Of a DNA stretch of 64,000 bases, positions 12,459 to 63,333 are shown piece by piece; position 1 is the stretch's first letter, and each line of letters starts with the position of its first letter. The translations under genes and the position numbers were made by a program. The stretch comes from a virus (lineage: Duplodnaviria; Caudoviricetes). The DNA lies in IMG/VR virus record IMGVR_UViG_3300030100_000603, positions 13,132 through 77,131 of that record, one strand, 5' to 3'. The notes below the pieces were generated by a model. It was not told the origin of the DNA. It was given only the letters and a program-made list of their open reading frames with translations, and searched no databases.

Positions 12459-13190
12459 TTAGAGATTCAGGAAGATGGTATTCGCTGTAGCGTACAGATT
12501 GTTGGATGCAACAACCCATGTCTCAACAGCTTCAAACGTCGGTGTCACCTGTTCATTGATATACTCAATACGAACACCAGCAGGTTTAGGCAGAAGACGG
12601 TCAGCAACCTGAGTTTCATCAAGACCGGGGAATACCGTTTGGTCAGGATCATTCCAATCACGACCAAGACTCAGTGTGAATACAGCAGGTTCATTCTCAT
12701 CCGTACCACCCTCGAAGAATTCCACTCGAACAGGTTCAAAGATGGACTGTACCGCACGAATGATTTCTTCAGGGTTTGTCCCTGCGTTATTCTGTACGAT
12801 TTTGGCTTTAAGGAAGGTCTTGAACAGACCATCAGACAAACCAATTACGCCCGATTCAGGATCAAATAAGGAGTAATAAAGACCACCTTGACCGTTATCG
12901 ACAGAACCAAACGGCTTAGCACCGGGATCATCAGAGAAACCAAAGAAACCAGTAGCAGCAATGTCCACAAGTTCCCTTGGTTGACCAATGATATTACCGA
13001 TGTTATCAAGTTGAACACCAGATGATTCATCAATATCCTTGATTTTCTCAATGTTGATGAAGGTATCTTCTAGTTCTTGGTTACCCTCAAGCCATACAGT
13101 GAGAAGTTGTTCAATGTGTGGTTTGTCTTTAAACTGTTCAGTAACCCTTTCCTTCGCCTGTTCAACGTAATTGATATTGTCAAGATTCAT
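12459..13190 (-). CDS. Baseplate wedge protein (DUF2612-like)
   Basis: GVQLDNIGNIIGQPR...FFGF...LKAKIVQN...LPKPAGV. Confidence 0.8.
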   Translation of the reverse strand: MNLDNINYVEQAKERVTEQFKDKPHIEQLLTVWLEGNQELEDTFINIEKIKDIDESSGVQLDNIGNIIGQPRELVDIAATGFFGFSDDPGAKPFGSVDNGQGGLYYSLFDPESGVIGLSDGLFKTFLKAKIVQNNAGTNPEEIIRAVQSIFEPVRVEFFEGGTDENEPAVFTLSLGRDWNDPDQTVFPGLDETQVADRLLPKPAGVRIEYINEQVTPTFEAVETWVVASNNLYATANTIFLNL

Positions 13191-15018: not shown

Positions 15019-15603
15019 TTAGCTCCACAAATATTCTGTAATTACAAATTGATCCAGAAGTTTATTAGACTTTGATTTATTTTCTTCGGCAGGTAAAACT
15101 TGTAAGTTATACCAAACATGAAGACCGCTTACATTCTTTCCCCGTAATGGGATAATGTGGTCAACCTCGTAAGGTGTACCACTTGTAATTGTCATCTCAC
15201 TTGAGTATTGATATATTCTCTCGATGAGATAATTATTCCTTTCCCCAAGTTCACCTGAAAGTTTTAATGTGCGTTTTTCTTTGTCTAACTTATATCGCAC
15301 ACTATAAAGAAGCACTTTATGCTTATTTTTACTTCTCCATATTCGACCGTTCTCTTTCACCCGATCTTTATTTTCCTGATACCATTTTCTGAAGTAATCT
15401 AAGTTTTCATAATAATATTGCTTAGAATATCCTTTTTCAACTTGTCGTTTTGAAGATTCGTTATCACACATTACACAATAACGATTCTTGGTTCTTCTTT
15501 TATAAATGTGACCATTTTTACATGGTTTGTTTGTGAAATAAAATTCAGAACCTCTTTTCATTGCTTCTGAATAACTTTTCGGTAAATCCTTAAATTCATC
15601 CAT
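15019..15603 (-). mobile_element. Free-standing HNH homing endonuclease
   Basis: N-terminal [11 protein letters not shown]...C..C; C-terminal [30 protein letters not shown]; AT-rich insert in the baseplate operon. Confidence 0.85.
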
Positions 15604-15687
15604 ATTTTATAACCTCTGTCTAGGTTGAAATAAAAAGCACCTAGATGATGAGACAGCATCACCAAGGGAGCTACCCTGTTCGGTGCT
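15604..15687 (-). ncRNA. Candidate structured cis-regulatory RNA, copy 1, 5' of an HNH gene
   Basis: AGCACC/GGTGCT closing stem, AGGG-TAGCT-CCCT and GATG-N6-CATC hairpins, then AACCT/AGGTT hairpin over the RBS; second copy at 35094-35169. Confidence 0.6.
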
Positions 15688-22296: not shown

Positions 22297-22767
22297 TTAA
22301 AAAATATTTAGATTATCCAGAATGTCAAAGGGACTTCTTTCGTTACCACCAACTTCATATGTTGTAATGAATTCAAAGTTGATAGTCCATTCCCGAGGTG
22401 TTGTCGATGCAGCACCGTAGGAAAGATTTGGTGTGGACGCAAGATAAGCATTACCAAATTGAAGAGAAGTCTGACCTCCAACATCACGAATAGTCAGAAG
22501 AAGATGACCCGTCTGATTAACGTCATCCTGATATGCAAGTTCACTCAAAAGATCATTCTGATTGGATGTTTGCATCAGGGAGAATGTAACACTACCAGAA
22601 CGATCCCTTGTTCTAACCCGAGTATGTTTACCCCTAATTCCTCTCACCTGCATGAAGTTGGGACTGTTCTTATTGATATTTATAAATGTCCCATTCGCAA
22701 AATCAGTAATGAGATAATCATTGATACTGAATACAATATCTTTAGGGGAGAATGTTGCTAGTTTCAT
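22297..22767 (-). CDS. Tail tube-like paralog 3
   Basis: TFSPKDI.FSIND..ITDFANGTFI, like the two upstream genes (DUF3277-like). Confidence 0.7.
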   Translation of the reverse strand: MKLATFSPKDIVFSINDYLITDFANGTFININKNSPNFMQVRGIRGKHTRVRTRDRSGSVTFSLMQTSNQNDLLSELAYQDDVNQTGHLLLTIRDVGGQTSLQFGNAYLASTPNLSYGAASTTPREWTINFEFITTYEVGGNERSPFDILDNLNIF

Positions 22768-34489: not shown

Positions 34490-35092
34490 TCATAACCCCA
34501 AATAGTATTCAGTGAATGGTTCAAACTTATTATGTTTACTATAATTAACCCTAGCCGGTAATATCTGAAGATTCTGTGGTGCATGTAACCCACACACCTT
34601 ATCATTATTTAAAGGAATTATGTGGTCTACATTCACTTTAGTATCCAAGGGGTCATCAGAAACCACACACTGTTCCAGCTTAACTTCGAGCATTTTCGCC
34701 TCTAAGAATATCTCATTAATTTCTTCACTGAATACCGGGTGCGAAGATGCCTTTTTGAGAAACCGTCTTTTACTTTCATTAGCTGCTTTTTGTGCTCTCC
34801 GTGCTGCTAGTTTTTCACCACCAATATCATAAAGCTCTTTGCGATGCTTCTTTACATATTCCGCCCTTTTAACCTTACTTTCAGGAGTATTGCGCCTAGC
34901 CCTTTCTTTGGCATTTCTAGCTTCACGGAATTCATTATCAGACATTGCATCCAAATATTGCAATCTCTTACATTCTACACAAGTACCATTATTAGTGTAT
35001 CTGGGTGAAAAATGTCCATCCCGGCAAGGTTTACCAGTAAAATACTTTTTAGCACCTAATTTTATTGCGTCTTTTCTACTAATAATATCCAT
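34490..35092 (-). mobile_element. Free-standing HNH homing endonuclease
   Basis: SRKDAI..G.KKYFTGKPCRDGH.SPRYT..G.CVEC; VDHIIPL....VCGLHAP.NLQILPA..N.SK.NK. Confidence 0.85.
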
Positions 35093-35093
35093 A

Positions 35094-35169
35094 CAACCCC
35101 CATCTAGGTTAAATAGATGAACCTAGTTTATGAGATGGCATGAACAGGGGAGCTACCCTTTTCGGTTCA
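35094..35169 (-). ncRNA. Candidate structured cis-regulatory RNA, copy 2, 5' of an HNH gene
   Basis: TGAACC/GGTTCA closing stem, GGG-TAGCT-CCC, ATG-N6-CAT, then AACC/GGTT over the RBS; covaries with copy 1. Confidence 0.6.
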
Positions 35170-37594: not shown

Positions 37595-38914
37595 TTACAT
37601 GTTCCAAATATTAGTCCCTTGCATGGCACCCATATTCAATTTGAAGTCAGTTGGTGCGATTTGACCCAATGAAAGATTATTGAAAGCATCACTTGTGGCG
37701 TCACACTGGTCATCGTGTCCAGTACCATCACCAACGAAGTTTTCGAGTTCTTTGCAGTAATCCTCATTCCAGTCGCCACGAACGATCTTGATAAGACCTG
37801 CTTCTGCGGCAGCACTGAATGGTTCAAAACGTTCCAACTTAGATTTAGTCGTCTTACACTTCTTGAATTTGTAACCCACAAGGTTCTTAGCGTGATCCTC
37901 AAAGACAGCCTTACCTGCACCACCAGCATCCAATGGGATACCGACTGTACACTTGGGACCATCTTGTTCAGCCTTCTTACGCATCATTTTCTTTACGCCA
38001 GAAGGACGTTTACGATCACGAATAGAATGCATTACATAATAATACCCGTCTGTTCCCAAGCGAATCTTTACCCCTGCTGTGTAGTCAGGATCAGGATTAA
38101 CCTCGGAAGGTTCGGTTGATGCTGTATCCCATGCACGCATCTCAGCTTTAGGTGGTGGAACATCTTTGATATCGACAAATTCACACCAATCACGATGGAA
38201 ATAACTACCGGCGTTAGCCTTGACATTCCATGAACCGTAGAGCAGTGCTTCACGGTCGATACGTGAGAGTGATTTCAGGTTTGCTTCGTATGCAGGGTCA
38301 ATCTTCTTGTTGTCCTTCACGGTCGCATTGATGAACGTAAAAGACTTGGGCATTGCATCCTTACCCCAAATACTCTCAGCTTCCTCTCTGGAATTGTACC
38401 AGTGAGTATCCTCACCACGACGGACAAACCAACGAAGAACACCACAGCGTTCCTCAATTGGGAAACCTTCGTCGTCAATCCACCAGTCTACAAGTGTTCG
38501 TACCCATCCTTCAGAAGTCGGGTTACAAGTAGCTCGGATATACGGACGGACACCCGTACCAGAACGGTTACGAGAAAGCATGTACCAGAACATCTTTTCA
38601 GTGAAACCAGTCAACTCATCGAAGATAATCAATGGCACCTGTGAACCTTTGTAGTTCTCCAAGTCCTTCTCAAGTTCGATACCAGCAAACTGTACACGAC
38701 TACCGCTGTTCTGGAAGTTCCACTTCATGACACCATCGTAAGATTCAGCGTCGGGAAAGTTATTAAAAATGTTGAATGATTCGTCCCAAGGACCGCCAGG
38801 GTGGCGTAGCTCGGCTTTAGTACGACGGAAGAAAATCGTATAGAAATTCGGTACGTCTTTATGCCTCAGACACTCAAGCAGAAGAGCGAAGGTCTTACCA
38901 CTACCAGCACCTCC
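37595..38914 (-). CDS. terL: Terminase large subunit, exon 2
   Basis: GGAGSGKT (rest of Walker A), IIFDELT (Walker B), RATCNP, AWDTA, HDDQCDA nuclease motifs. Confidence 0.92.
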   Translation of the reverse strand, partial: GGAGSGKTFALLLECLRHKDVPNFYTIFFRRTKAELRHPGGPWDESFNIFNNFPDAESYDGVMKWNFQNSGSRVQFAGIELEKDLENYKGSQVPLIIFDELTGFTEKMFWYMLSRNRSGTGVRPYIRATCNPTSEGWVRTLVDWWIDDEGFPIEERCGVLRWFVRRGEDTHWYNSREEAESIWGKDAMPKSFTFINATVKDNKKIDPAYEANLKSLSRIDREALLYGSWNVKANAGSYFHRDWCEFVDIKDVPPPKAEMRAWDTASTEPSEVNPDPDYTAGVKIRLGTDGYYYVMHSIRDRKRPSGVKKMMRKKAEQDGPKCTVGIPLDAGGAGKAVFEDHAKNLVGYKFKKCKTTKSKLERFEPFSAAAEAGLIKIVRGDWNEDYCKELENFVGDGTGHDDQCDATSDAFNNLSLGQIAPTDFKLNMGAMQGTNIWNM

Positions 38915-39145
38915 CGGTGCATGTTACGATGATCGCTACTCATCTCTCTTGTTTCCAAGAGTGTCGGACTATATCTTATTGGTAATAACCAATCCCCCCG
39001 TTTCGACTCCGCTTGGAGCCTACAATTAGTCTCTGCACGTTCAAAACCCGACACAAAGGCCGGGTTAAGCTTCGCTCAGGATTGCCTTATCTTTCGACTT
39101 AGGTTTCCCTGAATTAGAGGGGTTTTAGTACGGCAGAGGATTTTT
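38915..39145 (-). ncRNA. ORF-less group I intron (IA-type), 231 nt
   Basis: P AATTCAGGGAAAC, Q AATCCTGAGC, R CAGAGACTA, S AAGATATAGTCC; P1 exon GUACGGU with GCCGUAC including the U.G pair; P10 CCUCU with exon-2 GGAGG; P9 CTCTTG-GAAA-CAAGAG; terminal G. Splicing restores YG|GGAGSGKT. Confidence 0.92.
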
Positions 39146-39229
39146 ACCGTACAAACAAATGTCAGCCTGTGTTTCTAGGAACATGGACTGTTTACCAGGC
39201 TGAGGTTCCAACCTTTCATATCTAGCCAT
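39146..39229 (-). CDS. terL: Terminase large subunit, exon 1
   Basis: MARYERLEPQPGKQSMFLETQADICLYG (28 codons), in frame with exon 2 after splicing; spliced protein 467 aa. Confidence 0.9.
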
Positions 39230-39749
39230 AAGAAATCACCTTATCCTTCCTCATATCCCTTGTAAAACCACTAAGGGAAGACAATTTCCTACCAGAAAGA
39301 ATCTCACTGATGTAATCCGACCTTCGGATATCAAGAGATAAATAATCACAAATCTCTTTGCAACTAAATCCACAATGGTACATCTCATACATCTTGTGGA
39401 AGTCCTGATATGTTAGGTTCACAAGAGTCTTGGTTTTCATAAGACCCGTTTTGTACGCATGATGCATATTAAGTGTTCCAGTAACATACTCAAGATTGTC
39501 TTTGGCGTTATTGAGTTTATTCCCGTCGATATGGTTTACTTGGCAACCCTCGGGTTTCTCACCATGAAAACACTCAGCAATGAGAGTGTGAACCCGAACA
39601 CTTCTGCGACGAACACCATCACTGAGAATAATTTCACGATAACCGTCCCATGTGACTTTTCCAGCAAGAACATTACCGCGTTTACCGATTATATCACCAT
39701 TCTCACAGGCAAAATAACCGGGATAGTCTGCAATCTCAACCTTACTCAT
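39222..39749 (-). mobile_element. Free-standing HNH endonuclease (NUMOD4/I-HmuI-like)
   Basis: DYPGY...GDI...DGY..I.L...RVHTLIAECF...VNHIDGNKLNN...NLEYVT..LN..HA; stop lies inside terL exon 1. Confidence 0.88.
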
Positions 39750-40659
39750 CCTTCCTCCCATTGTCAGGCAAGAACACCCCGTTCTCTTCATCGTACTCAC
39801 CAGCTTCACGATCAACTGCTTCCAGTTCATCAGGTTCAGTATAATGGGATTGGAAGTATTTGTCAAGTTCATCTTGTGACTGGTGTGTAACAACCTTGTC
39901 ACCAAGTTCTCTTGAATTACTCGGAAGCGTAACGTGAACAACAGGAAGGGATTGACGTTCTTTCTGTTTTTCCATTGCGAGGGGATCAATCGGCTTTGGT
40001 TTCGCGTAGGAATACGAGGCATAAATTTCCAATGCTTTAAGACGTTGTGCGTTAGTTATTGGTTGCTTCGTATTGAGCTTATTCTCATCACCCTGAGCCC
40101 AGGCAATAAGTTGTTCAGCAGGATTGAAGTTCAGACGTTTGGCGGCACGCTCGACATTCTCCATACGCTTCTTTCGTGCGGCTTTAGCGTTGGCGGATGC
40201 TTTCTTGGCGTATTCTTTGTCCTGAAGGCTGGGGTTACCCTGTGGGCGACCAGTAAGGCGGGATATACATGAGACAGCTTTGAACTTACGGGACCAGTAC
40301 GCTTGATACGTTCGGATCAGCTTATTTGTATCAGGGTCACGTTCACCACTTGGAAGTTTCTCTACAACAAGCCAAGCGTGTTCGGTAGGATGCTTGAACA
40401 GATTACGTCTTTCGAATTGAATACCCTTCTTGAGTTTCCACTTCTCAGCAATCTGTTTGATTGTATCTTCTGGATCAAACTTGAACGGAAGAAGAGAACC
40501 GTCTACAATGTTGGGGTCCATAATATCTTCGTTCCAATACAGACCACTTGTTTCCGAAACACATAGATATTGGACAGGCCAATCACCTTCCGGCCCGAGC
40601 CATTCAATGAAAAAACTATCAATATCTACGTATTCAATGTGTTTATCTTTGTTTGCCAT
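39742..40659 (-). CDS. Possible terminase small subunit
   Basis: Position upstream of terL; basic helical middle (GRP...KKASANAKAARKKR) and acidic tail; no diagnostic motif. Confidence 0.45.
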   Translation of the reverse strand: MANKDKHIEYVDIDSFFIEWLGPEGDWPVQYLCVSETSGLYWNEDIMDPNIVDGSLLPFKFDPEDTIKQIAEKWKLKKGIQFERRNLFKHPTEHAWLVVEKLPSGERDPDTNKLIRTYQAYWSRKFKAVSCISRLTGRPQGNPSLQDKEYAKKASANAKAARKKRMENVERAAKRLNFNPAEQLIAWAQGDENKLNTKQPITNAQRLKALEIYASYSYAKPKPIDPLAMEKQKERQSLPVVHVTLPSNSRELGDKVVTHQSQDELDKYFQSHYTEPDELEAVDREAGEYDEENGVFLPDNGRKDE

Positions 40660-41274: not shown

Positions 41275-41988
41275 TCATTCTAAATCCTCCGAAGGTTTAA
41301 TCATTCCATAATATTTAATCTCGGCTTCCTCCCGCAATGAAACCGCAACTAGGTATTCCGTACTTGACCCAAGATGTTTTGTTTCTCCTTCATATTGACA
41401 ATATGCCGAGTAAACAGGCTTACCATCTTTTCTGTAATGAGAGATGTAAACACCTGTACGACTACTAGTATTAGTTTTATGCCTTCTAGTGTTATATGCT
41501 TGAATAACCCGATCTGACCAAATGCAGTTTTCAGGGGCATAATCACCATTAACATCTAATCGTTCAAGGGTATATTGCTCTGGCCTTTCTCCCATGTCAA
41601 AAATAAAATTCCGCAACCCCTTTTCTCCATCCAACCATCTATCACAAACTTTAATTCCTCTCCCACCATAATCCTTATAGGCTATATCCGTCTTAGTGTA
41701 ACATCTGCGAATCATAGACTTATATGATGTGTAAGCCCTCATCTTGGAAAGACGATGGGTTGAAAATTTTTCCCTAACAGTTTTCCGATGAAAACAGCCG
41801 CACGATTTTGTATAGCAAGATTTCCAAGATTCAATCATTACTTCACAAATGTTCCCACAAACACAAGAAAAGAAAGCCTTTCTGCGTAACCTACCAGAAG
41901 GATTGGTGTGTGGACGAGTCTCCATTAAAAAAGTCAACCATGAACCATAAATGGTTTCACCAAACTCATAAGTCTTTTTAGCAGGCAT
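41275..41988 (-). mobile_element. HNH endonuclease with AP2-like C-terminus
   Basis: C.CGN, TKSCGC, YGGRGIKVCDRW, DMGERP..YTLER.DVNGDY.PENC.W, NTSSRTGV. Confidence 0.85.
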
Positions 41989-58802: not shown

Positions 58803-60131
58803 TCAGACAGCTTCTACCTTGAATCCATCGCCAAGCTCTTCGTTAAGGCGAGCGAGTGCGTCATCATAAGCCTGCTGTGCCTTATCCAGTTCACGCTTCG
58901 CACGCTTCACTTCTTCAATGGTATTCATCGGTTGATCCTCTTCTTCTTCATCCTTGTTTACTGGTACGGCAATCCCGTTCACCTTTTCGAAGGCACCAAT
59001 GTCATCATATGCGCCAGGAAGATTATCTTCAGCGTTATTGTAAGCACACGACCCTTCAATCAGTTTGAACATCGGACTGTATGACCTATCATCACGCTCA
59101 AGCTGTACGATACTGCCCGGAGTGAACCAAATTGCCTCTTCGGTCGCCTTGAAGTAGTCACCAACATTCATTCCGGCTTTTTGTGCAGGTGTTGGTTCAT
59201 CAATTTTAGTGACATATTCAAGATCGGCAAATGCGCCAGCAGTACCATCTTCTGAGTTGTTGAAATGACACTTGCCACTAACCAGCTTGAACAAAGGACT
59301 TTCGCTACCATCATCATGCTCAAGTTGGGCAATACTACCATCATCAAAACAAACTGATCCAACAATTCGGACATGATCCCCTACGCTGATGCCTTTACGT
59401 TGTGCGGGTGTCACTTTCTTCTTCTCCGTCAGGCGTAGAACTTCAATAATATCCAACTCTACAGGGTCTTCACCAAATGATCCTTCATCATCCCAATGGG
59501 CAAGACCATCATCTTCCTCATCCCAACCAACTTTCTCCCAAGAGTTGGCGCTATTATAAGACCATTCTGTCTCACCACGATCAGCGCCAGCAATCATGAA
59601 TGCATCGCGGACAAGATTGTATTCCTGCTCATTGTCAATGTCTTTCATGTTGACATAACACCCAGGCTTAATCACGATGTTTTCCATTTCCTTTTCCTCT
59701 TCGTTGACAATTTCGTAAGATGTACCTTCCCATGCCGGATGGAATCCATAATGAGGTTCTTCAATCTGCGACCATCCACCCTCTCCGATTCTTTCCTCTA
59801 CCTCAATGATATCTCCGTCATTCAGAAGGTCTGTACACATATATTCTGCATCGAGAATCCTGAGTTTGGTCACCTTTTTGTCCACTTCTTTGAAGATTTT
59901 CACATCACCGATTCTGATACGTGATGCTCCAATTACTTCATTAAAACCAGTATGATTGTCTGAATATTCAATTCCACAATCATCCTCATTGTCTTTAATT
60001 ACATGGTAAAGGTATGTGACATGACCCTTTGACACATGACCCTCTTCGTGTGTCGGGTACGATGCACCCTCGTGAACCTCGATATAATCGCCAATCTTCA
60101 GTTCCTTGATGGTATCTTTGACCAGTTTCAT
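58803..60131 (-). CDS. Acidic multi-domain protein with tandem SH3-like repeats
   Basis: Two ~72-aa repeats, TPAQ.KG..VGD...F..GSI.QLE.DD.S.SP.FKL..G.C..NN.ED...GA, plus other IGD/DGD modules; coiled-coil tail. Confidence 0.7.
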   Translation of the reverse strand: MKLVKDTIKELKIGDYIEVHEGASYPTHEEGHVSKGHVTYLYHVIKDNEDDCGIEYSDNHTGFNEVIGASRIRIGDVKIFKEVDKKVTKLRILDAEYMCTDLLNDGDIIEVEERIGEGGWSQIEEPHYGFHPAWEGTSYEIVNEEEKEMENIVIKPGCYVNMKDIDNEQEYNLVRDAFMIAGADRGETEWSYNSANSWEKVGWDEEDDGLAHWDDEGSFGEDPVELDIIEVLRLTEKKKVTPAQRKGISVGDHVRIVGSVCFDDGSIAQLEHDDGSESPLFKLVSGKCHFNNSEDGTAGAFADLEYVTKIDEPTPAQKAGMNVGDYFKATEEAIWFTPGSIVQLERDDRSYSPMFKLIEGSCAYNNAEDNLPGAYDDIGAFEKVNGIAVPVNKDEEEEDQPMNTIEEVKRAKRELDKAQQAYDDALARLNEELGDGFKVEAV

Positions 60132-61950: not shown

Positions 61951-63333
61951 TTAATCCTTAATCTCACTACCCTTTACGGTTTTATAAGCTTTGAGGAATA
62001 AAATAACATCTGCCTCAGAACTCCCCGCTTGATAACGTACAAGGTCATTACTCTCTACGTCCATTACCTCAACAGTACCATTCGGCTCAAAAGAAATTGA
62101 TACCTTAAGGTCTTTTGACAGTTCCATAATGTAGTCAAAAATGTCAGCGCCCATATCACATGTACCTATGAAAGTTTTGATCGAAAATCATGTTGCTCGG
62201 GTTTTCCTTTGATACCAACTGCACCCGAACAAACTGACCGTTCTCCGTACAGACAAGATCATATCGCTGAATTACGTCGTCATACGTCCCACGCTTGCCG
62301 TCAGTGAAGATACGTCGCCATGGAAGCTCGTACCACAGGTTCTCCAATGCATCGTCTATCGCCTTGTATGTAGTTTCTGATACCTCAATTGGTTCTTTCA
62401 TATATCATCCCTCAAGAAAGTAGTAGGTTGCTGCCTCTTCTTCACAGTACAGTGCCGTGCTGATACCACTCTTCGCCTTGATATCCCCCTCATCGTTATG
62501 GTCGATAAGACCAGGGTAATTACGCATCTTCTTATACAGAACTACTTCGATTGCATCTCCCCTTGCCATTGAATTATTGGTTGCTTCACGAATTTCAGTT
62601 ACTTCAGCATCCATCACAACAATGAATCCACCACCTTTCTTGCGTTCAATCTCTTCGTTGTTCAGACGAGGATTGTAGTATGTACTGTTGTCTGCAAGAA
62701 AGTGGTCACTCATTGCCTTGCGCCCATGACTGTCGAGTGAATTACTAGGTGCGTGCTGCGGGTGAAACTCTGCGTTGAAAGTAGTCATTTCTTAGTCCTC
62801 ATCGGTTTCAAACATCTCAGGATGTGCTTTCAGCATATCATGTGCATCCCGATTAATCAAGGTAATTTTATCAGTTTTTCCATCAATCAACTGCAACACT
62901 GTCTGGATACCGCCATGCGGTTGTTGAGCATCCGTATACGTCAGTAGTACATTATCAGGTTTCGGACTCGACCGCACCTTTTCAAACGTTTCCTGATAGC
63001 ATTCATTGACAGGTTTCAGGTTGATGAGTACAGACACCAGTTCGTCATCGTCATATACACATAGATAACTGAACATGTCAACAAACATCTTCTGTAGATC
63101 ATAACTCATAGGTTCAACTCCACATCATCTTCGGGTTTAAAGTTATTGTATAGGTTGCGAATTGCAATGTCAACAGCCTTGTTGTGTGCTGTATTCAGTC
63201 CCCAAAAGACCAACCAGACAATCAACCAGGGCCAGAATAGCACAGTGGCTATAAAATGCAAGACATGCCATGTAGATTTCCTGTGCTTCGTATTCAGTTC
63301 ATGTATTGCAGCATCACGTTTCATCTCATTCAC
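61951..63333 (-). CDS. Small hypothetical genes (61951-62154, 62156-62401, 62405-62788, 62792-63109, 63106-63333 membrane)
   Basis: Tightly packed ORFs with RBSs. Confidence 0.6.

Follow-up and report, generated by a model that had tools for sequence, protein, structure and literature searches.

The stretch of DNA analysed here (the window) comprises 64,000 nucleotides of a 77-kb IMG/VR phage record (IMGVR_UViG_3300030100_000603, positions 13,132 to 77,131 of that record). It contains a module of structural genes, all on the minus strand, encoding the large terminase, portal, head-morphogenesis protein, prohead protease, baseplate spike and baseplate wedge. This module is interrupted by two small ORFs on the same strand, at 15019-15603 (gene 1, 194 aa) and 34490-35092 (gene 2, 200 aa). 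Both encoded proteins match phrog_1035, annotated as 'endonuclease VII' (E 1.4e-17 and 7.5e-16, respectively). Gene 1 carries a DHIIPL...N...N motif, and the catalytic motif VDHIIPL...NLQ(V/I)LP...N.SK aligns between the two proteins. A Pfam search with both proteins and a PDB sequence search with the HNH protein returned no match. The phrog_1035 matches, together with the D-H...N...N motif, identify both ORFs as free-standing His-Me-finger nucleases of the endonuclease VII / HNH type.

Immediately upstream of each of these genes lies a short leader, at 15604-15687 (copy 1) and 35093-35169 (copy 2), both on the minus strand. The two leaders are about 80% identical and the two proteins 32% identical. 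A search for the core ACCGAA-N-AGGGTAGCTCCC gave exactly two occurrences in the window, none in 100 shuffles, and likewise two across the whole genome, while a covariance model of the family (R1) found only the two window copies in the genome, with 66.1 bits (copy 1, E 5e-16) and 68.1 bits (copy 2, E 1.3e-16). Two further HNH genes of the same phage, at 39222-40022 (phrog_59) and 41275-41988 (phrog_374), both on the minus strand, have no leader, so the element is not used by every nuclease gene of one genome.

The neighbourhood of the first of these leaderless genes holds a group I intron (Rfam, 81 bits; 38945-39173, minus strand). It lies just downstream of the HNH ORF 39222-40022 and just upstream of a minus-strand ORF, 37595-38728, that matches only the C-terminal two thirds of the large terminase (phrog_979, positions 236-610). 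The terminase gene thus looks split by an intron with an associated homing endonuclease.

Copy 1 extends from the 5′ arm of its closing stem to the base preceding the AUG. The 5′ arm of this stem, P1 (AGCACC, 15682-15687), pairs with GGTGCT (15636-15641). It is followed by the conserved core (15664-15681), made up of the junction strand J12 (GAACA, 15677-15681), the P2 hairpin (GGG-UAGCU-CCC, 15666-15676) and the junction strand J23 (UU, 15664-15665), and by the P3 hairpin (GGUGAUG-CUGUCU-CAUCAUC, 15644-15663; loop 15651-15656). A fourth hairpin, P4 (AACCU-AGACAG-AGGUU, 15611-15626; loop 15616-15621), contains the Shine-Dalgarno (SD) sequence GAGG in its 3′ arm (15611-15615) and the end of its loop. 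All four helices, that is, a three-way junction plus a downstream hairpin, are reproduced by the minimum-free-energy fold of this copy. The P3 loop CUGUCU is complementary to the P4 loop AGACAG, with a computed energy of −6.3 kcal/mol for the loop-loop duplex.

Copy 2 has the same anatomy. Its P1 5′ arm (UGAACC, 35164-35169) begins 5 nt past the stop codon of the upstream gene and pairs with GGUUCA (35118-35123). The conserved core (35146-35163) consists of J12 GAAAA, P2 GGG-UAGCU-CCC (35148-35158) and J23 CU, and P3 (GUUCAUG-CCAUCU-CAUAAAC, 35126-35145; loop 35133-35138) has one C-A mismatch. In P4 (UAACCU-AGAUGG-GGGUUG, 35094-35111; loop 35100-35105) the SD is formed by the GG of the loop and the 3′ arm. 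Here the P3 loop CCAUCU matches AGAUGG (computed energies, −6.4 kcal/mol for the loop-loop duplex and −4.8 kcal/mol for P4). In either copy, the hexamer complementary to the P3 loop coincides exactly with the P4 loop.

A preliminary description of this DNA had noted the same element ahead of both HNH genes, compensatory changes in the closing stem (AGCACC/GGTGCT versus TGAACC/GGTTCA), an invariant GGG-TAGCT-CCC hairpin, an ATG-N6-CAT hairpin (P3) and a hairpin hiding the ribosome-binding site (RBS; AACCT/AGGTT and AACC/GGTT). All of these are present, the RBS hairpin of copy 2 as TAACCT/GGGTTG. The complementarity of the P3 and P4 loops, the best-supported tertiary feature of the element, was missing from that description.

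The leader belongs to a large family. Scanning IMG/VR with the core gave 11 loci as an exact pattern, at least 119 when the pattern was relaxed at two bases, and at least 116 with a free P2 loop. The complete architecture is found in about 90% of the viral matches listed (110 of 122 parsed, by eye and with a simple parser), which represent 89 unique sequences. A covariance model built from 62 sequences of this sample, which was seeded on the conserved core, recovered about 140 sites scoring at least 42 bits among the roughly 185 IMG/VR viral loci listed. A second search with the model, over the whole records of 50 contigs, yielded no new variant copies.

Most phages carry one copy and some up to six. 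A complete 114-kb IMG/VR phage (G012) has six leaders (59528-59600, 62433-62505, 70605-70673, 78276-78346, 80229-80297 and 99060-99127) with differing P2 loops (UAGCU, UCGCU, UUGCU, UUGA).

The cultured Escherichia phage EP_H11 (OP688485.1, 111 kb) contains one canonical copy at 22496-22568, with 81.6 bits. This copy is unannotated in the record and stands upstream of a 303-aa 'hypothetical protein' without Pfam match. A distant blastn search with a family member found the element only in EP_H11 and one uncultured record, a sequence search revealed no close relatives of the EP_H11 copy itself, and a megablast of the window locus against GenBank phages gave no match. In bacterial genome contigs a pattern scan produced 14 matches, all chance-like and in GC-rich coding DNA, a result that says little about prophages because the pattern fixed the rarer CC-closing form.

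Across the family, the fold is a three-way junction with a variable P1, a near-invariant P2 and a variable P3, accompanied by the fourth hairpin holding the SD. The P1 5′ arm is 4-6 nt long and variable. The junction strands read GAANA (J12), YU, usually CU (J23), and UA (J31). P2 is a 3-bp GGG/CCC stem whose loop is predominantly UAGCU and has a consensus better described as UNGCU, and P3 is a stem of 5-8 bp with a loop of 6-7 nt that opens with C(C/U). A linker of 5-20 nt separates the P1 3′ arm from P4, which lies about 15-25 nt downstream of the junction. The SD begins within the P4 loop, whose last two bases are its first GG, and supplies the purines of the 3′ arm; the 5′ arm of P4 is an anti-SD tract of pyrimidines. 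The downstream strand of the loop-loop pairing ends 7-9 nt ahead of the AUG, and its final two bases open GGAG, GGGG or AGAGG.

A related group of sequences shows a second architecture, GAAUA-P2-GAAAAG, which keeps the GGGUAGCUCCC hairpin (L017, L065 and L103; also L032, L071, L108 and L116). Their P3 loop is likewise complementary to SD-like purines downstream, and they score 22-29 bits with the model. The retention of P2 in this class suggests that this hairpin may be the key module.

The helices covary, in agreement with the earlier proposal of a genuine structured RNA upstream of nuclease genes. In a MAFFT-only alignment of the 62 sequences with the pseudoknot written in, all preselected by a parser requiring P1, P3 and a loop match of at least 5, 89.8% of the cells are paired. 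Column shuffles of the same alignment reach 63.4% (0 of 500 attain the observed value) and partners slid by 1-3 columns at most 49%. Of the 89 unique parsed sequences, for which a 15-base core pattern had been the sole criterion of selection, 76 passed this parser. The covariation score is 0.678 against 0.19 in the control, and changes on both sides are seen in 18 of 22 pairs: 6/6 in P1, 7/7 in P3 and 5/6 in the loop-loop helix, which is 90% paired.

The invariance of P2 in this alignment results solely from the search patterns, in which it was fixed. The model also picked up secondary copies in the same contigs, selected independently of the core pattern, and their P2 stems take the forms GGA/UCC, AGG/CCU, GAG/CUC, AGU/ACU, GAGU/ACUC, GCGC/GCGC, GGCU/GGCC and GGU/ACC. 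Once these copies are included, changes on both sides appear in all 16 pairs of the junction, and pairing in P2 is 100%. The asymmetry between G-U and A-C mismatches, used as a test of the strand, is weak (40 versus 29).

Over 48 distinct loops, the complementarity of the P3 loop to the bases at the SD was compared between cognate and non-cognate pairs. Cognate pairs have a longest Watson-Crick run of 5.96 nt on average, with 94% reaching at least 5 nt, versus 3.38 nt and 9.5% in non-cognate pairs. Support for P4 itself is moderate family-wide: 4.71 bp in cognate leaders versus 3.59 bp in chimeras, with at least 5 bp in 60% versus 28%, the chimera control being inflated since a pyrimidine tract faces SD purines in every member. 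The RBS is thus buried in structure, as had been proposed, with the SD paired both in the P4 stem and in the P3-P4 loop-loop helix.

Four helices, complementary loops, covariation and the placement relative to SD and AUG, found ahead of nuclease genes of unrelated folds, make it probable that the element acts in cis as an mRNA leader, locking the RBS of a promoter-less homing-endonuclease cassette. Judging from the pairing, its effect on translation is most likely repression. The 6-7 nt of the P3 loop would pair with the P4 loop as a kissing or pseudoknot interaction, so that the SD would be held twice, in the P4 stem and in the kiss, with the AUG 7-9 nt beyond. This double masking would reduce 30S binding and the number of translation starts, and a potentially harmful nuclease would be kept low even though its gene sits in strongly transcribed late structural operons. 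Such a module would be portable to any downstream ORF, as only the P3 loop must match the bases beside each ORF's SD. The conserved junction and P2 may serve as a scaffold, or as a recognition site for a factor, that positions P3. One point against the lock is that full-length pairing of a 6-nt loop is sterically demanding.

The same pairing could conceivably act in the opposite direction, the kiss pulling P4 open or recruiting the ribosome and so raising translation of the nuclease. In ColIb-P9 repZ, a pseudoknot between a hairpin loop and a site next to the RBS activates translation; this pseudoknot is set off when a leader peptide is translated, and an antisense RNA prevents it. By analogy with ColIb-P9/IncB, where a hairpin loop also pairs beside an RBS that lies within a hairpin of its own, and given that the SD is masked already by P4 alone, activation might be imagined here. 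However, the 3′ strand of the kiss covers the first two G of the SD, so masking is increased rather than relieved, and neither a leader peptide nor an antisense partner is apparent. We regard activation as improbable.

The preliminary description had further proposed mutually exclusive ON and OFF folds, in which the P1 3′ arm pairs instead with the anti-RBS strand. The 7-bp pairing on which this rested exists in both window copies, but it is not a property of the family: the P1 3′ arm matches the anti-RBS strand over 2.87 bp in cognate and 2.84 bp in non-cognate combinations. The alternative occurs in the window copies and a few close relatives, in which P1 closes with CC/GG and P4 begins with ACCU, and where the P1 3′ arm mimics the SD. 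The remainder of the leader and the 40 nt upstream of it were also searched for other sequences that might pair with the P3 loop or the SD segment; cognate and non-cognate values were equal, and no such partner was conserved.

The genes behind the leaders are diverse. The ORFs following 59 diverse copies match Endonuclease_7, HNH_3, HNH_2, HNH, GIY-YIG, LAGLIDADG, PD-(D/E)XK, T5orf172 and DUF559, so the near-invariant P2 hairpin stands ahead of at least five unrelated nuclease folds. The idea that the element is carried by one homing-endonuclease family is therefore not supported. That the HNH protein regulates its own synthesis through the GGGUAGCUCCC hairpin, as also suggested at first, becomes very unlikely, since the same hairpin precedes EndoVII/HNH, GIY-YIG, LAGLIDADG, PD-(D/E)XK, T5orf172 and DUF559 genes alike.

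This diversity is seen even at a single orthologous site. In the window phage (34025-36008, minus strand) and two related phages (L007:903-3063 and L005:2668-4342), the site lies between the head-morphogenesis and protease genes. The flanking head-morphogenesis gene of the window phage is 48% identical to that of L007 and 44% to that of L005, and the prohead protease, compared with L007 only, is 38% identical. A near-identical leader is present in all three, from about 10 nt ahead of P1 through the SD, and the ORFs behind it are mutually unrelated, one of EndoVII type, one LAGLIDADG and one HNH of another family. A kept leader with unrelated ORFs points to either a resident socket for nuclease exchange or a 5′ recombination handle of the cassettes.

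As the leader marks the 5′ boundary of this exchange, the core could double as a recombination handle beside its RNA role. It is, on the other hand, very improbable that the element is solely a DNA-level signal (a recombination site, promoter or homing target) or a chance similarity. The helices preserve pairing and not sequence, the element always has the same orientation with respect to ORF and SD, and core matches are missing from the shuffles. This reading is largely refuted by the covariation.

A plain hairpin, as in T4, would be enough for simple occlusion, and the strict conservation of the junction and P2 therefore suggests an additional function. These parts may act as a structural clamp, as a binding site for a ligand or some universal factor, or as a dimerisation loop. 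The second of these is a tentative reading in which the junction and the UNGCU hairpin act as a sensor, either an aptamer or a protein or ribosome site, whose occupancy by a small molecule, by the ribosome or another component common to all hosts, or by another copy of the RNA would tighten or loosen the kiss and thereby time nuclease synthesis. The core (GAANA, GGG-UNGCU-CCC, YU, UA) hardly varies, in contrast to the free variation of P1, P3 and the kissing loops; it is conserved and covarying in the manner of an aptamer, and none of it is needed by a simple occluding hairpin. Position 4 of J12 and position 1 of J23 are correlated (A or G with C, n=61; C with U, n=6; U with G, n=4) in a non-Watson-Crick pattern of the kind typical of a tertiary pocket, which suggests non-canonical contact within the junction. 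The GAAUA-P2-GAAAAG architecture, too, retains the P2 hairpin. Against a sensor stand the lack of a conserved mutually exclusive alternative structure in the leader and the 40 nt upstream, the lack of a match to any Rfam aptamer, and the downstream genes, which are nucleases of unrelated folds and belong to no metabolic pathway, arguing against a metabolite logic. The nuclease itself is ruled out as a common effector by the same variety of folds.

The third possibility is a narrower form of sensing, in which self-complementary P2 loops would kiss between leaders, of the same or of different nuclease mRNAs, and make translation concentration-dependent. The predominant loop UAGCU holds the palindrome AGCU, and independent variants hold AAUU, UGCA (twice), GGCC and GAUAUC. 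Palindromes thus occur in about 6 of 11 distinct loop types, compared with an estimated 15% or so for a 4-base palindrome in a loop of 5-6 nt. Other variants are not palindromic (UCGCU, in two lineages, UUGCU, UAGCC, UUGA and UUAGCG), and a 4-bp kiss between 5-nt loops on 3-bp stems would be weak. We consider dimerisation unlikely.

The position of the leader relative to upstream genes varies. Some copies start 3-22 nt past the 3′ end of a tRNA gene (L003, L004, L006, L013 and others); 4 of 78 adjoin a tRNA gene within 40 nt, and 11 of 78 have a tRNA gene on the same strand at most 400 nt upstream. Such leaders would ride tRNA-cluster transcripts and would not follow a translated gene. Coupling to an upstream stop codon was rejected as a general mechanism, given distances of 0 to about 100 nt and the copies that follow tRNAs.

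The copies directly behind tRNA genes could be taken to favour a role in RNA processing, insulation or termination, with the junction as a nuclease-recognition or transcription-stop element that sets the cassette off from the gene upstream, the SD pairing being incidental. A U-rich tract follows the P1 3′ arm in copy 1 (GGUGCUUUUUAUUU) and in about half of the family, and RNase E processes the T4 segB and mobE transcripts (PMC2988022). In the other half, however, ACCAA follows P1, and a scan of the sense strand for intrinsic terminators was negative at both window copies. This explanation, which leaves 48 covarying loop/SD pairs unaccounted for, is improbable in our view.

Only for a few T4 genes, each guarded by a private hairpin, is it understood how phages tolerate many selfish nucleases inside essential operons that are highly expressed. 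On the preferred reading, as an RBS lock, one conserved, portable RNA module would serve at least five unrelated nuclease folds, across hundreds of uncultured phages as well as one cultured coliphage. With six matching loop bases setting its specificity, the module would be a naturally programmable lock on translation, and it may be a new sensor RNA as well. Should the sensor reading be true, the leaders would form a new class of programmable riboregulator, into which nuclease cassettes of any fold plug by matching six loop bases. As the 5′ boundary of nuclease ORF exchange among related phages, the leader also bears on how homing-endonuclease cassettes move. The copy in EP_H11 offers a convenient experimental system, directly testable in E. 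coli.

Comparison with catalogued RNAs agrees with the preliminary description, in which the element could not be assigned to a known Rfam family. Scans with Rfam 15 covariance models matched no family to the leader: at the gathering threshold the window gave only the group I intron elsewhere, and in an E-value scan the best hit to copy 1 had E 0.29 on the wrong strand, with nothing meaningful in ten diverse members. The int-alpA RNA motif (RF02996) is, like the leader, a small candidate structured RNA associated with phages whose function is not known, but its model (gathering score 35.8 bits) had no match in the 77-kb genome at E up to 10 and was absent also from the E-value scans of copy 1 and the ten members. 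Likeness to hammerhead, boxB and tRNA-arm structures was rejected by eye, as the leader differs from them in junction strands, loop size and stem length. A full-text literature search found no description of the motif, and the family merits an Rfam entry.

Several regulatory RNAs share single features with the leader. In the SAM-II/SAM-V, preQ1-II/III and SAM/SAH riboswitches the SD is hidden in a pseudoknot. These have in common with the leader conserved junction nucleotides, covarying helices and an SD within a pseudoknot helix; the leader differs in preceding nuclease rather than metabolic genes and in matching no Rfam model. The repZ/repY system of ColIb-P9 (IncI-alpha/IncB) shares the pairing of a hairpin loop beside an RBS itself in a hairpin, whereas in the leader no leader peptide or antisense RNA is seen and the kiss covers SD bases. 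The PeSL of T4-type phages, from the 2010 work of Arbiol et al., are reportedly mobile regulatory cassettes that combine an early promoter with a stem-loop and act at the DNA or transcription level. Like the leader, they are short conserved regulatory stem-loop modules bordering shuffled gene cassettes; unlike them, the leader is translational and contains a pseudoknot.

The closest parallel is found in the T-even phages. I-TevI, I-TevII, I-TevIII, segB and mobE are controlled by RBS-sequestering RNA structures, and seven free-standing endonucleases of T4 are promoter-less cassettes (PMC2988022). RBS sequestration for homing endonucleases is therefore known, while a conserved, portable, pseudoknotted three-way-junction module is not. 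As in the hairpins of I-TevI, I-TevII, I-TevIII, segB and mobE of Aeh1, a cis RNA pairs the SD of an endonuclease ORF (PMC2988022), and the leader likewise stands directly upstream of homing-endonuclease ORFs with the SD base-paired in a conserved structure. T-even cassettes are also often promoter-less inside phage operons, and the presumed purpose, to limit or delay a risky nuclease, is the same (PMC2988022). Each T-even structure is one hairpin specific to its gene, and a late promoter within that hairpin provides the relief (PMC2988022). In the leader, by contrast, a sigma-70-like scan of the sense strand at both window copies detected no internal promoter, with a consensus that may not be this phage's promoter type, and no alternative fold is conserved. 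What sets the leader apart from these hairpins is a portable conserved three-way junction whose core is near-invariant and which has a loop-loop contact, present in hundreds of phages and ahead of nucleases of at least five folds.
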